A DNA stretch of 64,000 bases from Escherichia coli (lineage in GTDB: Bacteria > Pseudomonadota > Gammaproteobacteria > Enterobacterales > Enterobacteriaceae), in the NCBI RefSeq assembly GCF_044647545.1, contig NZ_CP172818.1; one strand, 5' to 3'. This document shows positions 9,492-62,374 of the stretch, piece after piece (position 1 is the first letter of the stretch; every line of letters begins with the position of its first letter). Made by a program: the position numbers and the translations under genes. The notes under the pieces are model-generated. The model made no database searches. It saw only the letters and a program-made list of their open reading frames with translations, and was not told the DNA's origin.

Positions 9492-9532
9492 TTAATTTTT
9501 TCTCCTTGCCGATGATCCTCATCGTATTCCAG

Positions 9533-9955
<423 letters not shown>

Positions 9956-9957
9956 TC

Positions 9958-10869
9958 TTAAATCCCCGCCCCCTGGCTAAAATGCTCTTCCCCAAACACC
10001 CCGGTAGAAAGGTAGCGATCGCCACGATCGCAGATGATCGCCACCACCACCGCGCCAGGGTTAGCTTTTGCCACTCGCAGTGCACCAGCAACCGCGCCGC
10101 CGGAGCTAACGCCACAGAATATTCCTTCCCGCACTGCCAGTTCGCGCATGGTGTTTTCCGCTTCTCGCTGATGAATATCCAGCACCTCATCCACCAGCGA
10201 AGCGTTGAAAATCCCCGGCAGATATTCCGCAGGCCAGCGGCGAATGCCGGGAATGCTGCTGCCCTCTTCCGGCTGTAAGCCGACAATGGTCACCGGTTTG
10301 AATTGTTCGCGCATAAAGCGCGACACGCCGGTAATGGTGCCGGTTGTTCCCATGCTGGAGACAAAATGGGTAATGCGCCCGCCGGTTTGCTGCCAGATTT
10401 CCGGCCCGGTGGTGGTGTAATGGGCGTAAGGGTTATCGGGATTATTGAACTGATCGAGCAGCTTTCCTTCACCACGATTAGCCATCTCCAGCGCCAGATC
10501 GCGCGCACCTTCCATGCCCTGCTCTTTGGTGACCAGAATCAGTTCCGCACCGTAGGCACGCATTGCCGCACGGCGTTCCTGGCTCATGTTGTCGGGCATC
10601 AGCAATTTCATGCGATAGCCTTTAAGCGCGGCAATCATCGCCAGCGCAATGCCGGTGTTACCACTGGTGGCTTCGATCAACACATCACCCGGTTTAATCT
10701 CGCCGCGCTTTTCCGCCTCGACAATCATCGAAAGCGCTGCACGGTCTTTTACCGATCCCGCCGGGTTATTACCTTCCAGTTTCAACCAGACTTCACTGCC
10801 GTTATTCGGCCCCATTCGCTGCAACTTCACCAGAGGCGTATTGCCAATTGTTTGTTCTAATGTACTCAC
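9958..10869 (-). CDS. cysM: cysteine synthase B / O-acetylserine sulfhydrylase B (303 aa), GTG start
   Basis: ORF track 9958..10947; start taken at GTG 10867-10869 giving VSTLEQTIGNTPLVKLQRMGP...; C-terminus ...GEEHFSQGAGI. Confidence 0.95.
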   Translation of the reverse strand: MSTLEQTIGNTPLVKLQRMGPNNGSEVWLKLEGNNPAGSVKDRAALSMIVEAEKRGEIKPGDVLIEATSGNTGIALAMIAALKGYRMKLLMPDNMSQERRAAMRAYGAELILVTKEQGMEGARDLALEMANRGEGKLLDQFNNPDNPYAHYTTTGPEIWQQTGGRITHFVSSMGTTGTITGVSRFMREQFKPVTIVGLQPEEGSSIPGIRRWPAEYLPGIFNASLVDEVLDIHQREAENTMRELAVREGIFCGVSSGGAVAGALRVAKANPGAVVVAIICDRGDRYLSTGVFGEEHFSQGAGI

Positions 10870-10892
10870 GATCTCTGTCCATACGTGGTGTT

Positions 10893-10928
10893 GCCTGATG
10901 CGACGCTTGCGCGTCTTATCAGGCCTAC
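10893..10928. repeat. REP (repetitive extragenic palindromic) element
   Basis: gcctgatgcgacgcttgcgcgtcttatcaggcctac matches the canonical E. coli REP consensus form; lies between cysA and cysM. Confidence 0.7.
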
Positions 10929-10948
10929 AGGTTACAAACCTTGCCATT

Positions 10949-10981
10949 AAAAAGCCCGGATCGCGGGAAGCGCCTCCGGGC
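10949..10981 (-). terminator. hairpin with T-run downstream of cysA, a possible attenuator ahead of cysM
   Basis: On the - strand: gcccggaggcgcttcccgcgatccgggc followed by TTTTT; about 20 nt past the cysA stop. Confidence 0.5.
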
Positions 10982-11002
10982 GTTTAACATTCACTCAACC
11001 TA

Positions 11003-12100
11003 TCAGGCGCTTTGTGCGAGAGCAAGTTCCTCATCGCGGGTTTCAATACGCTCGTCGCCGTTATACAGCCGCGCATGTTGCAGGCCGACGAACAGACGAT
11101 CGCCGCGCACTGGCGCATCATCCCCGCGCATCACCACCGTCAAGGGTTCGTCATACCATCCCAGCGGCTGCACCACTAATTGGGTGTAGTGACCTTTCGG
11201 GCTGGCTTCCAGTACCTGTACGGGTAGCGGCGAATCGAGGCTGGTACGGCGGCTGATATCCACTTCCCACGGACGCAGGAAGAGATCCACCGGCCCCTGA
11301 TACGCAGGTGTATAGCCCAGCGGCCAGCGATGTGCGCCAACATGGAACTGCCCGCCGCGAATGGTTCCCTGCAGGCGGTTCACTTCGCCCATAAATTCGA
11401 GTACAAAACGGGTCGCTGGTTCGCGCCATACCTGGTCCGGTGCATCAGCCTGCTCGATATTGCCCTGGCTCATCACCACTACACGATCGGCTACTTCGGT
11501 CGCTTCTTCCTGGTCATGGGTCACAAACACGCTGGTGAATTTCAGCTCTTCATGTAACTGACGCAGCCGGCGACGCAACTCTTTACGCACCTGCGCATCC
11601 AGCGCGCCAAACGGTTCATCAAGCAGCAGAATTTGCGGTTCTACGGCAAGCGCGCGCGCCAGCGCCACACGCTGTTTCTGGCCGCCGGAAAGCTGCGCAG
11701 GATAGCGGTCTGCCAGATGGGCAAGCTGCACCATCTCCAGCAATTTTGTCACTTTCGCTTTGATAGCTGCGGCATTCGGGCGCTCGCGACGCGGCAGCAC
11801 CGTCAGGCCGAAAGCGATATTGTCGAACACCGTCATATGGCGGAACAGCGCGTAATGCTGAAACACGAAACCGACTTTACGATCGCGCGCATGCAGGCGG
11901 CTAACGTCGGTGCCGTGGAAGCGAATATGCCCGCTGGTTTGATGCTCCAGCCCGGCGATAATGCGCAGCAGCGTGGTTTTCCCGGAACCGGACGGCCCCA
12001 GCAATGCGACCATCTGACCAGAAGGAATATCCAGTGAGATATCGTTCAGCACCTGGGTGCGACCAAAAGACTTCTTAATATTGGCAATCTCAATGCTCAT
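11003..12100 (-). CDS. cysA: sulfate/thiosulfate ABC transporter ATP-binding protein (365 aa)
   Basis: [54 protein letters not shown]...; Walker A and LSGGQ signature present. Confidence 0.97.
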
Positions 12101-12965
12101 GATGTTCCTCCTGCTGCGCGCGTTTTTCCTGATTCTCCAGACGCCACTGCAACATACTCTTTAAAAACAGGGTGATAATCGCCATCAGCGTCAACAACGC
12201 GGCAGCGGTAAAGGAGCCGACGGTGTTGTAGTCCTGCTCCAGCAATTCAATCTGTAACGGCAGCGAAAGTGTTTCGCCGCGAATCGAGCCGGAAACTACC
12301 GACACCGCACCAAACTCGCCAATCGCGCGGGCGTTGGTCAGCACCACGCCATAAAGCAGCGCCCAGCGGATGTTCGGCAGCGTGACGCGACGGAACATCT
12401 GCCAGCCGGACGCGCCAAGCAAAATCGCCGCCTCGTCTTCCTGGCTGCCCTGACTTAACATTACCGGTACCAGTTCGCGCACCACAAACGGACACGTCAC
12501 GAAGATGGTGACCAGTACCATACCCGGCCAGGAGAACATAATTTGCAGATTATGTTCATCCAGCCAGCCACCGAGCGGGCCGTTAGAGCCGTAAAACAGC
12601 AGATACACCAGACCGGCAACCACCGGCGACACGGCAAACGGAATGTCCAGCAGCGTCAGCAGCAACTGGCGTCCGGGGAAGTTAAAGCGCGTCACCAGCC
12701 AGGCCAGCAGAATGCCGAACACCAGGTTCACCGGCACGGCAATCAGCGCAATCATCACCGTCAGCCAGATGGCGTGCAGCATGTCCGGATCGGCCAGATT
12801 CTGTAAAACCGGCATCAGCCCTTTGCTGAACGCCTGCACGAAGATGTAAATCATCGGCACCAGCAGGATGAACGCCGAAACCAGCATCCCGATGCCAATC
12901 AGAAACCATTTGTCCCAGTTAATCGGGCGCGCGTCATAACGCTTCAATTGTGTCACTTCCGCCAT
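12090..12965 (-). CDS. cysW: sulfate/thiosulfate ABC transporter permease CysW (291 aa)
   Basis: Full-length ORF; membrane permease; overlaps cysA by 11 nt, consistent with translational coupling. Confidence 0.95.
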
Positions 12966-13798
12966 TAATGACCTACCACACGCCGACCAAAGCGACTTTG
13001 CAGAGTGTTAATTGAGAACAGCAGCAACAGGGATGCCGCGAGGATCACCGAAGCAATCGCGCTCGCCGCCGGGTAATCAAACTCCTGTAAGCGAACAAAA
13101 ATCATCAGCGACGTCACTTCCGTCTTCCAGGCAATGTTCCCGGCGATGAAAATCACCGCGCCAAATTCACCAAGACTACGGGTAAACGACAGCGCCACGC
13201 CCGCCACCAGCGCCGGAGAAAGCTCCGGCAGCACCACTTTGCAGAAACTCTGCCAGCGCGTTGCGCCGAGCGTTTCTGCCGCTTCTTCATATTCCGGGCC
13301 TAACTCTTCCAGCACCGGCTGCACGGTACGCACCACAAACGGAATACTGGTAAAAGCCATCGCCACCGCAATCCCCAGCCAGGTATAGGTAACTTTGATA
13401 TCAAACTTCGCCAGCCATTCACCGTAAAAACCGTTTACAGAAAAGAGCGAGGCCAGCGTTAAACCGGCCACTGCCGTTGGCAGCGCAAAGGGTAAATCCA
13501 TCAGCGCATCGATCAGCGTGCGGCCCGGAAAGCGATAGCGGGTTAAGATCCACGCCATCAGCAGGCCGAAAACGCCGTTAAAAATCGATGCCACAAACGC
13601 CGACAGCAGCGTCACTTTGTAGGCCGCGACCACCTGCGGGTTGGTGATCACCTCCCAGTACTGTGCCCAGCTCATCTCAGAGAGCTGCATCACCAGCGCT
13701 GAGAGCGGCAGCAGCAAAATCAGGCACACAAACAGCAGACTGGTGCCGAGGCTTAAGGTAAAGCCCGGCAGCACGCGTCTTGATGAAACTGCAAACAT
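12965..13798 (-). CDS. cysU: sulfate/thiosulfate ABC transporter permease CysU, also called CysT (277 aa)
   Basis: Full-length ORF; start and stop overlap cysP and cysW by 1 nt each. Confidence 0.95.
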   Translation of the reverse strand: MFAVSSRRVLPGFTLSLGTSLLFVCLILLLPLSALVMQLSEMSWAQYWEVITNPQVVAAYKVTLLSAFVASIFNGVFGLLMAWILTRYRFPGRTLIDALMDLPFALPTAVAGLTLASLFSVNGFYGEWLAKFDIKVTYTWLGIAVAMAFTSIPFVVRTVQPVLEELGPEYEEAAETLGATRWQSFCKVVLPELSPALVAGVALSFTRSLGEFGAVIFIAGNIAWKTEVTSLMIFVRLQEFDYPAASAIASVILAASLLLLFSINTLQSRFGRRVVGH

Positions 13799-14814
13799 TA
13801 ATTACGCCCCGCCGCTAACAGCTTGTCTAACTCGCCGCCGCTGGTGAAGTGGGTTTTCATCACTTCCGGCCAGGAGCCAAATTTGTCTTCCACGCGGAAC
13901 AGCTCGGTCTGCGGGAATTTGTTTTTCAGTTTGTCCATGACTTCCGGGTTATTTACGCGGTAGTAATAGTCGGTGATGATGGTCTGCGCCTGCGGGCTGT
14001 AGAGCCAGTTCAGGTAGGCTTTTGCTGCTTTTTCCGTACCGTTGGCCTGCACGTTTTTATCGACCCACGCCACCGGGAATTCCGCAAGAATGTTAGTTTT
14101 CGGAATAACTACTTCGAAGCCCTGCGCTTCATACTGTTTACGGATGTTGTTCACTTCCGATTCGAAGCTAATCAGTACATCGCCCAGCCCACGTTCGGCA
14201 AAAGTGGTGGTCGCGCCACGACCGCCAGTATCGAACACTTCAACGTTTTTCAGGAACTGAGTCATAAACTGTTCAGTTTTGGCTTTGTCGCCACCGTCGG
14301 CTTTGTCCGCTGCGCCCCATGCCGCAAGGTAGGTGTAACGCGCGTTACCTGACGTTTTCGGGTTCGGGAAAATCAGCTTCACGTCGGAGCGCACGAGGTC
14401 GTTCCAGTCGTGAATATTCTTCGGGTTGCCCTTACGCACCAGGAAGCCCATGGTGGAGTAGAACGGCGAGCTATTATTCGGCAGGCGCGACTGCCAGTCG
14501 GCCGGGATAAGCTTGCCTTTGTCATGCAGGATTTGTACGTCGGTCACCTGGTTATAAGTGACAACGTCTGCTTTTAAGCCCTGCAAAATCGCCAGCGCCT
14601 GTTTTGATGACCCGGCATGAGATTGTTTTATCGTCAGTTTGTCGCCGCCGTTATCTTTTGCCCATTGTTGCTCAAACGGCGGATTCAGGGCGGCAAACAG
14701 CTCGCGGGAGACATCATAAGAACTGTTCAGCAGTTCCGTTGCCTGTACATGGCCCGCCAGCAGCAGAGAAGCGACCAGCGCGAGTGAGTTCTTTTTCAGT
14801 AAGTTAACGGCCAT
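13798..14814 (-). CDS. cysP: thiosulfate-binding periplasmic protein CysP (338 aa)
   Basis: [57 protein letters not shown]...; signal peptide; first gene of cysPUWAM. Confidence 0.95.
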
Positions 14815-14920
14815 TGCGCACCCTTATAAATTTAACGACTTTCTAATAGCCATCATATTTATAACGGACGTGAAAGGAGTAACGGTTTTATATACCGTTT
14901 GGTGATTTGGAAGTTGAAAA

Positions 14921-14958
14921 GGGAAAAGACGAAATCCTCCCCACAAATGCAGGGAGGA
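14921..14958 (-). terminator. putative intrinsic terminator downstream of ucpA
   Basis: Stem tcctccc/gggagga (14935-14941 and 14952-14958) followed on the - strand by a T-rich run; about 13 nt past the ucpA stop, upstream of cysP. Confidence 0.45.
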
Positions 14959-14970
14959 AACAGAGGTGAA

Positions 14971-15762
14971 TCAGATGCCGACGCTAACCGTCTCCGGTAG
15001 TGTGCTGCCGCCATCAATCACATTCTGTGTACCGGTTAAATAGCTGGATTCATCCGATGCGAGGAAGGCCGCCAGTTCGCCGACTTCCAGCGGATCGGCG
15101 AGGCGACGCATCGGGATTGCTTTCGCCATTTCAGTCAGCACCGATTCTGGATCTTCCGGGTTCGACTGGCGGGCAATGCTTTCCGCCATTGGCGTGCGAA
15201 CGTATCCAGGGCAGATGGCGTTAACGCGAATACCAGACTGCGCGTACTCCACCGCCAGCGATTTAGTCAGGCCAACAATCGCCGCTTTCGTTAAGGCGTA
15301 CGCCGTTTCGCCCGGGTCTGCCACCATATCGCCAGTGACTGAAGACATCATCACAATGCGGCCATCTTTGCGGGCAATCATCTCCGGCAGCACCGCCTTC
15401 GTGACGTTCCATACGCCTTTTATATTGATATCAATATGGAAATCGCGATCTTCATCGCTCATATCGAGGAAACTGCCCAGACGACAAACGCCTGCGTTAT
15501 TCACCAGAATATCAATGCGCCCTTCTTTTTCCTTAGCGCGCTTAATAGCTGCGGCTACCGACGCCGGGTCACGCACATCGGCGACAACCGCCGTACAGCG
15601 ATGACCACGGCCACACAGTTCGTCCGCCAGCTTTTCGATCTCAGGGGAGATATCCAGCAAGATTAGGTTTGCGCCATGACGCGCAAAAGTTCTGGCAATT
15701 CCTTCGCCAATTCCCTGCAATGCGCCCGTAATCAGTGCTGTCTTGCCCGTGAGTTTACCCAT
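14971..15762 (-). CDS. ucpA: short-chain dehydrogenase/reductase UcpA (263 aa)
   Basis: ORF track 14971..15828; start taken at MGKLTGKTALITGALQGIGEGIAR (Rossmann GxxxGxG); ATG at 15760-15762 confirmed in sequence. Confidence 0.9.
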   Translation of the reverse strand: MGKLTGKTALITGALQGIGEGIARTFARHGANLILLDISPEIEKLADELCGRGHRCTAVVADVRDPASVAAAIKRAKEKEGRIDILVNNAGVCRLGSFLDMSDEDRDFHIDINIKGVWNVTKAVLPEMIARKDGRIVMMSSVTGDMVADPGETAYALTKAAIVGLTKSLAVEYAQSGIRVNAICPGYVRTPMAESIARQSNPEDPESVLTEMAKAIPMRRLADPLEVGELAAFLASDESSYLTGTQNVIDGGSTLPETVSVGI

Positions 15763-57653: not shown

Positions 57654-57715
57654 GCCGGATAAGGCGTTAACGCCGCATCCGGCCATGATGCCTGATACAG
57701 TCTTATCAGACCTAC
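57654..57715. repeat. pair of REP elements
   Basis: gccggataaggcgttaacgccgcatccggc (57654-57683) and gcctgatacagtcttatcagacctac (57690-57715), between ypfN and ypfH. Confidence 0.7.

Positions 57716-62335: not shown

Positions 62336-62374
<39 letters not shown>

Follow-up and report, generated by a model that had tools for sequence, protein, structure and literature searches.

Background

Internal, leaky Rho-independent terminators set differential expression within operons, as in rpsU-dnaG-rpoD, and intercistronic repeats are another known influence: the REP between malE and malF is an mRNA stabiliser, and BIMEs, which consist of two opposed REPs and a linker, are associated with Rho-dependent attenuation. 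The REPs of E. coli are of the types y, z1 and z2, with as hallmarks a GTAG sequence 5' of the foot of the palindrome and non-complementary bases within the stem, the latter being required for binding of TnpA-REP; single REPs are the minority class (84/584 in K-12), and REPs have been reported both as terminators and as mRNA stabilisers (Ton-Hoang et al. 2012, PMC3333891).

The cysPUWAM genes of E. coli have been treated as one operon (PMC3082872), while cysPUWA and cysM are elsewhere given as separate operons (PMC4705995), and in engineered strains cysM is driven by a promoter placed ahead of cysP (PMC10963904). A literature search on the cysA-cysM spacer (terminator, REP, promoter) found nothing describing it. 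Here we show that this spacer contains a hairpin followed directly by a U-tract (10949-10981), and further downstream a REP; on balance, we favour the reading that the hairpin and U-tract are a conserved, leaky Rho-independent terminator which trims cysM transcription within cysPUWAM, and that the REP is a later addition of the Escherichia lineage.

Organisation of the cysA-cysM junction

The analysis concerns a 64-kb window of E. coli DNA, with "the window" used throughout for this whole stretch. Both the ORF list and the annotation give the order cysP-U-W-A-M on one strand with cysM as the last gene, bearing out the gene context given in the earlier note, and the positions given there for the cysA stop, the hairpin, the REP and the cysM GTG are all right when read on the minus strand. 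Over 501 nt around the site the window matches E. coli FDAARGOS_497 (NZ_CP033850.1) with 100% identity, and in that record PGAP annotates cysP, cysT, cysW, cysA and cysM on one strand, with the same GTG start for cysM. The features of the junction are as follows, with the basis of each in brackets.

11003-12100, minus strand: cysA coding sequence, sulfate/thiosulfate ABC transporter ATPase (ORF list; PGAP annotation of the 100% identical record)
11005-11003, minus strand: TGA stop codon of cysA (sequence)
11000-11005, minus strand: tandem in-frame stop codons TGA-TAG ending cysA, the TAG being at 11002-11000 (sequence)
10954-10981, minus strand: terminator-like GC-rich stem-loop of 28 nt, GCCCGGAGGCGCUUCCCGCGAUCCGGGC (sequence and folding)
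10949-10953, minus strand: U5 tract directly 3' of the hairpin, followed by AAU (sequence)
10929-10948, minus strand: 20-nt spacer from the U-tract to the REP, containing an ATG at 10947 (sequence)
10893-10928, minus strand: single REP, GTAGGCCTGATAAGACGCGCAAGCGTCGCATCAGGC (= GUAGGCCUGAUAAGACGCGCAAGCGUCGCAUCAGGC) (sequence, folding and copy number)
10925-10928, minus strand: GTAG of the REP, CTAC on the plus strand (sequence)
10893-10924, minus strand: imperfect palindrome of the REP, with an AA/GC internal mismatch (sequence)
10873-10880, minus strand: weak Shine-Dalgarno-like sequence GGACAGAG upstream of cysM (sequence)
9958-10869, minus strand: cysM coding sequence, cysteine synthase B, with its GTG start at 10867-10869 (ORF list; PGAP)

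The cysA-cysM spacer thus measures 133 nt in the window, and the REP ends 23 nt ahead of the cysM GTG, with GGACAGAG lying within these 23 nt. A 329-aa ORF that starts at the ATG at 10947 and runs to 9958 in frame with cysM was also considered as cysM, and was rejected because it translates across the REP and because the GTG, unlike this ATG, is the start that is annotated and conserved across genera.

The 133-nt spacer is shared with E. coli K-12 MG1655, in which two of 171 aligned nt differ, and the K-12 RefSeq feature table has no repeat feature annotated there. The cys operon of the window (9958-14929) is unusually diverged from that of K-12, by 4-6% per gene, and the allele is found at 99% identity or more over 501 nt in only 87 of 5,434 E. 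coli records, which suggests that it was imported or diverged long ago. The yfeS gene, which neighbours cysM in K-12, is absent from this locus in the window strain.

The hairpin and U-tract

On the transcribed strand, the hairpin runs from G10981 to C10954 and has an outer stem of 7 bp (GCCCGGA/UCCGGGC), separated by a small internal loop from an inner stem of 3 bp (CGC/GCG) that is capped by UUCCC, with UUUUU (10953-10949) following immediately. Hairpin and tail together fold at -19.1 kcal/mol (z = -2.84), a value equalled by 1 of 200 shuffled sequences. This is the GC-rich stem-loop with adjacent U-tract that is expected of an intrinsic terminator, and its position is clear of a terminating ribosome, as the stem begins 22 nt past the cysA TGA; related genera whose short spacer has a single hairpin show a similar offset. 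A simple terminator scan did not call the hairpin, apparently because the internal loop interrupts the stem that such a scan looks for. Judged from its predicted structure, the combination of an interrupted stem with a tract of five U would fit partial rather than complete termination.

When the 151-nt region was folded as a whole, both the hairpin and the REP stem stayed intact, and the ribosome-binding region of cysM was unstructured (folding z = 0.14). The minimum-energy fold of the 151 nt also pairs the area of the cysA stop, CCUGAUAGGUU (10996-11006), with the GTAG flank of the REP, AACCUGUAGG (10925-10934), thereby enclosing the terminator-like hairpin; the pairing of CCUGAUAGGUU with AACCUGUAGG is probably due to chance. 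An Rfam search gave no riboswitch or sRNA even at an E-value of 1, the sole match being a partial one to the REP-like naRNA4. The locus does not look like a regulated attenuator or riboswitch, with no Rfam family upstream and only about 20 nt between the stop codon and the stem.

The REP element

The sequence at 10893-10928 is a true member of the E. coli-type REP family. It is a stem-loop formed by an imperfect palindrome, with a total length of 36 nt (30-40 nt being typical), it has GTAG 5' of the palindrome foot (10928-10925), and its stem contains non-complementary bases, predicted to form a 2x2 internal loop with AA opposite GC. It is extragenic, lying in the 133-nt spacer, and multi-copy: no matches are expected in shuffles of the window, while a megablast search with the spacer as query hit E. 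coli genomes at a median of 6 near-identical places each. The predicted fold is very stable (-20.5 kcal/mol, z = -5.85), a value reached by none of 200 shuffles. It is probably of the z2 type, as it matches the z2 consensus apart from the loop.

Further REPs are present in the 64-kb window at 57654-57683 and 62339-62368, which by our reading are both of the y type, the second with a CTAC tail. The spacer in the window contains one REP only and therefore no BIME. The similarity to naRNA4 (RF02564) amounts to 37.9 bits against a gathering threshold of 59.5, covers model positions 44-76 of 77 and lies on the strand opposite to the operon; membership of this family was rejected on the basis of the score and the partial coverage of the model.

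Conservation within Escherichia

Of 5,426 complete E. coli genomes, 5,421 contain the 151-nt spacer query at 95-100% identity (80% or more of its length), and hence hairpin and REP are fixed in this species. The spacer differs from that of K-12 at 2 of 133 positions, compared with 18.6% of the fourfold-degenerate sites of cysA and cysM (binomial P about 7e-10), and from that of E. albertii at 7 of 133 positions, compared with 30.7% of the fourfold sites (P about 3e-13). The Escherichia spacer is thus 6- to 12-fold less diverged than the fourfold sites of the flanking genes, and the E. albertii changes in both stems are either at loop positions or convert G-C to G-U; the two within the REP are one such G-C to G-U change and one loop change, so that the stem is kept. 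The same pattern is seen in the first hairpin when one E. coli locus (L003), E. albertii and two Citrobacter are compared, the differences being in loops or preserving the pairing (basal G-C to G-U, inner CGC/GCG to CAC/GTG), with the inner-stem change in C. amalonaticus being compensatory. These substitution patterns indicate purifying selection in Escherichia on the entire spacer, including the REP, whose strong conservation suggests that it is no longer neutral there.

Conservation and turnover across the Enterobacteriaceae

A CysM scan gave 80 loci from more than 20 genera, and the cysA-cysM spacer was extracted from 76 of these, making 77 spacers with the one in the window. A hairpin (-10 to -19.5 kcal/mol) with a T-run is present in all 77, and the T-run starts 16-25 nt ahead of the cysM start codon in 73 of them. 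The 77 loci are phylogenetically related. As the detector used is permissive and picks up 2.0 sites per kb as background, a detection at any single locus is weak, and the argument rests on the constant position and on the stem and T-run being kept while the sequence is replaced. This replacement is extensive: the hairpins of different clades form classes which are not alignable with each other, as listed here.

Buttiauxella, Cedecea, Siccibacter, Atlantibacter and relatives: spacer of 63-71 nt holding a plain GCGGCC-loop-GGCCGC stem followed by 4-7 T
Several Citrobacter, Salmonella arizonae, Lelliottia, Yokenella and K. michiganensis: one GCCCGG...CCGGGC stem, a homologue of the E. coli hairpin, with a T-run
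Most Enterobacter, Klebsiella, Kluyvera, Raoultella, Kosakonia and others: first stem ending in CCTAC, a linker, and an inverted GTAG REP which bears the T-run
Escherichia (E. coli, E. albertii) and Pseudocitrobacter faecalis: T-run on the first hairpin, with E. coli-type REP(s) between the T-run and the ribosome-binding site

Joint consensus folding of all hairpins gave no structure, as is to be expected from classes that do not align, and base pairs were therefore counted in one class only. In this GTAG-REP class 92.6% of cells pair, and one stem pair shows covariation, being G-C in 13 sequences and C-G in 9 with no broken case, although this lone pair may reflect REP subfamilies rather than local selection.

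The flanking signals are similarly well kept. The first stop codon of cysA is TGA in all 76 related loci, and is followed in frame by TAG in 64 and by TAA in 10, meaning that the function of the second stop is conserved (74/76) while its codon varies; such a tandem stop could keep ribosomes out of a hairpin located 22 nt past the TGA. The cysM start codon is GTG in at least 66 of the 76 related loci, and a GGACAG or GAG motif is conserved at the Shine-Dalgarno-like position across genera.

The distribution of the REPs is altogether different from that of the hairpin with T-run, as among the loci examined a REP after the T-run is restricted to Escherichia and one Pseudocitrobacter strain, and was not found in the Salmonella, Citrobacter, Klebsiella and Enterobacter loci. 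Against the spacer of Citrobacter sp. Cu233, that of Escherichia has an insert of about 64-65 nt (10881-10948 region) with ATGG on both flanks (AATGG...TATGG), which comprises the part of the spacer following the U-tract, the REP and the flank from the REP to the ATGG, all absent from the Citrobacter strain. The ATGG flanks resemble a short target duplication or microhomology. Spacers of other genera, and that of Pseudocitrobacter faecalis, contain REP pairs.

This P. faecalis locus (L005, spacer 1407-1565) has the same first hairpin as E. coli, with 1 difference in about 66 nt, and at the same insertion point it has a y-type REP plus an inverted z2-type REP, with the z2 copy opposite in orientation to that of E. 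coli. A second Pseudocitrobacter genome (L004) has the Enterobacter-type layout, and the contrast between the two points to REP turnover or horizontal exchange at this site.

The turnover raises the question whether either stem has a function, as both may be selfish or relic palindromes of the REP type, harmless in a permissive spacer. The hairpin next to the T-run is itself a GTAG REP in many genera, and the spacer has gained and exchanged REPs, in one, two or more copies. However, basal genera have a plain, non-REP hairpin with the T-run at the same place, the T-run survives every replacement, and the spacer has changed far less than neutral sites, and we consider a purely selfish or neutral origin of the two stems to be unlikely, giving it very little credence.

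A second alternative is that in E. coli the REP is the main regulator, which would set the ratio of transporter to CysM either by protecting cysPUWA from 3'-to-5' exonucleases after cleavage or by BIME-like, Rho-dependent attenuation. The reported roles of REPs as terminators and mRNA stabilisers (PMC3333891) agree with this, as do the very stable predicted RNA stem, its preservation in E. albertii, and the conservation of the REP and its flanks, which within Escherichia equals that of the hairpin (2 and 7 differences per 133 nt). Yet the other genera examined manage with the hairpin alone, save for the one Pseudocitrobacter strain, a protective hairpin is already present upstream, and the spacer has a single REP rather than a BIME; REPs are moreover selfish repeats that often lie beside terminators. 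This makes the REP doubtful as the main regulator. The earlier note had proposed an intra-operon attenuator or stability element without separating hairpin from REP, and the comparison divides the two: for the hairpin the proposal is strongly backed by its presence in 77/77 spacers, the turnover of its sequence and the constraint on it, and for the REP as a general regulatory site it finds no support.

Promoters, RNA ends and expression data

A scan for σ70-like promoters from 9500 to 15500, on both strands, found none, either between cysP and cysM or between the T-run and cysM. Together with a distance of only 16-25 nt from the T-run to cysM in most genera, which leaves no room for a promoter, this means that cysM is reached by read-through. 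The opposite arrangement, in which the hairpin is an efficient terminator and cysM an independent unit with its own promoter, has in its favour the separate listing of cysPUWA and cysM (PMC4705995) and a mutant in which cysM did not track cysUWA (PMC13393413). Transcription from a promoter located within cysA would likewise need to pass the hairpin, and with no promoter-like hexamers from cysP to cysM, and a spacer too short for them in most genera, a separate cysM promoter is unlikely as well, and is the explanation to which we give the least credence.

The RNA 3' ends in the published lists examined do not mark the hairpin. The earlier note had named the lack of 3' ends at this position among the findings that would speak against it, and in part this is what was found: the curated Term-seq lists of Adams et al. 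2021 (PMC7815308), a single thresholded dataset covering LB at two densities and M63 glucose, have no 3' end at K-12 2539xxx or 2538xxx, the U-tract (10949-10953 in the window) being located at K-12 2,539,663-2,539,667 on the minus strand. The same lists do contain a strong 3' end in cysI, at K-12 2888409, 97 nt ahead of cysH, and other cys operons may thus also have internal 3' ends. Regions of Rho-dependent termination are given at the very start of cysP (2543521, a strong one) and downstream of cysM, antisense to yfeS (2538040) (PMC7815308). The TERMITe and SMRT-Cappable-seq supplements have no entry for cysA or cysM. At the other end of the operon, a strong terminator-like hairpin with 10 pairs and a T-rich tail is located between ucpA and cysP (14935-14958, minus strand), presumably the ucpA terminator, insulating the cysP promoter.

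Expression data on cysM relative to the transporter genes are mixed. The earlier suggestion of a lower CysM level agrees with two absolute proteomics datasets, where the mass fraction of CysM is 2-5 fold below that of CysA, and conflicts with a third, where it is about 2-fold above (PMC8144880). In an lsrR mutant cysUWA was up about 9-fold with cysM unchanged, although cysP was likewise unchanged, which weakens the argument for decoupling (PMC13393413). The lower CysM values and the lsrR mutant thus count in favour of a cysM that is decoupled from the transporter genes, while the absence of a Term-seq 3' end, the tract of only five U, the interrupted stem and the inconsistent proteomics count against the hairpin being a terminator.

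Loci where cysM is not preceded by cysA

Some loci have lost the association of cysM with cysA. In Kluyvera genomosp. 1 (L038) and in Enterobacteriaceae RIT691 (L064) the place of cysA upstream is taken by a rhamnosidase-like gene (about 2200-2500), which ends in TGA TAG and is followed by a spacer in which hairpin and T-run are unchanged. Enterobacter sp. ENT03 (L051, 1893-2500) has a divergent yfeK-like gene upstream, and still a REP hairpin and T-run abut the ribosome-binding site of cysM; a promoter scan upstream of this cysM gave nothing informative. These rearranged loci show that the hairpin is compatible with cysM expression, and they hint that the module of hairpin and T-run belongs functionally to cysM rather than serving to end the cysA message.

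The latter is the basis of the main rival to a leaky terminator, namely that the hairpin and U-tract act on the cysM RNA, with no termination being involved. They would then be a structured, U-rich element 5' of a weak GTG-start site, acting for instance as a site for ribosomal protein S1 or a standby site, as an enhancer of translation, or as a stem protecting the 5' end after processing. The nearly fixed position of the T-run relative to the cysM start is in line with such a role, as is the persistence of the module with cysM next to a rhamnosidase-like or yfeK-like gene, and it would also account for the lack of a listed Term-seq 3' end and for CysM not being strongly under-expressed. Against this, almost all E. 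coli genomes tolerate an insertion of some 65 nt that parts the U-tract from the ribosome-binding site and breaks the proximity of the two; a GC-rich hairpin with an adjoining U-run is what specifically marks an intrinsic terminator; and in the rearranged loci the sequence was perhaps merely carried along. We therefore regard a role in cysM RNA function or translation as possible but not likely.

A further reading is that the hairpin and U-tract form a dedicated, conserved cis-module of cysM, retained even next to other upstream genes, with actively modulated read-through, for instance through ribosomes at the conserved cysA TGA-TAG or through a sulfur-responsive factor, such that cysM, which belongs to the thiosulfate route, is tuned apart from the transporter, with the REP having been recruited in Escherichia. 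To this we assign only a slight chance.

Proposed role of the hairpin and REP

With the hairpin as a leaky terminator, the reading that we prefer, a share of the transcripts from the cysP promoter would end after cysA, at the hairpin and U5 tract, and the remainder that reads through would be the sole source of cysM mRNA. The weak ribosome-binding site and the conserved GTG start probably limit the output of cysM further. The REP would have been inserted later, in the Escherichia lineage, between the U-tract and the cysM ribosome-binding site, and is predicted to form a second stable stem-loop in the read-through RNA. Going by the behaviour of REPs elsewhere, this stem-loop may slow the 3'-to-5' decay of the transporter message or add slightly to the attenuation; it would be neither an ancestral nor a general part of the device.

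If the hairpin is indeed a partial terminator, a single CysB-controlled promoter would supply transporter and cysteine synthase B in unequal amounts, which would explain why some studies see cysM act apart from cysPUWA. This would be relevant to strains engineered for cysteine or methionine production on thiosulfate, where cysM is driven from a promoter ahead of cysP. The locus is also a natural series of REP gain beside a conserved terminator, with the REP serving as the stem itself in some genera and lying just after it in Escherichia. The current understanding of REPs and terminators is unchanged by this, and its importance is modest unless the read-through is regulated.

Comparison with known systems

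We found no earlier description of the universal hairpin and T-run ahead of cysM, of the turnover in which REPs take over the terminator stem, or of the strength of the constraint on the spacer. The similarity to internal operon terminators lies in a GC-rich hairpin and U-tract between co-oriented genes, with the downstream gene being promoterless and dependent on read-through; it differs from them in its short U-tract, its interrupted stem and the lack of a listed 3' end, and termination is in this case a prediction.

The REP in the spacer is like other E. coli REPs in its length of about 36 nt, the GTAG on its 5' side, the AA/GC mismatch, and in being extragenic and multi-copy, whereas it is single, as only a minority of them are, and lies within an operon, downstream of a separate terminator-like hairpin. 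By analogy with the malE-malF REP and with BIMEs, a stable intercistronic stem-loop could protect the upstream RNA and lower distal expression, but its absence from most relatives means that it cannot be the conserved mechanism at this locus. With naRNA4 (RF02564), a REP-derived nucleoid-associated RNA, it has REP sequence and structure in common, with only part of the model matched.

Further relatives are found at the same locus, in the form of the BIME-like pairs of Enterobacter, Klebsiella, Kluyvera, Raoultella and Kosakonia, where the T-run is at the same position and the E. coli hairpin has its homologue in the first member. In these pairs it is the distal GTAG REP that forms the terminator stem, whereas in Escherichia the REP, presumably of the E. 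coli z2 type, lies past the T-run. The cysA-cysM junction is thus made up of parts of known kinds, an intrinsic-terminator-like hairpin and a REP, and represents ordinary fine-tuning of an operon rather than a new system.
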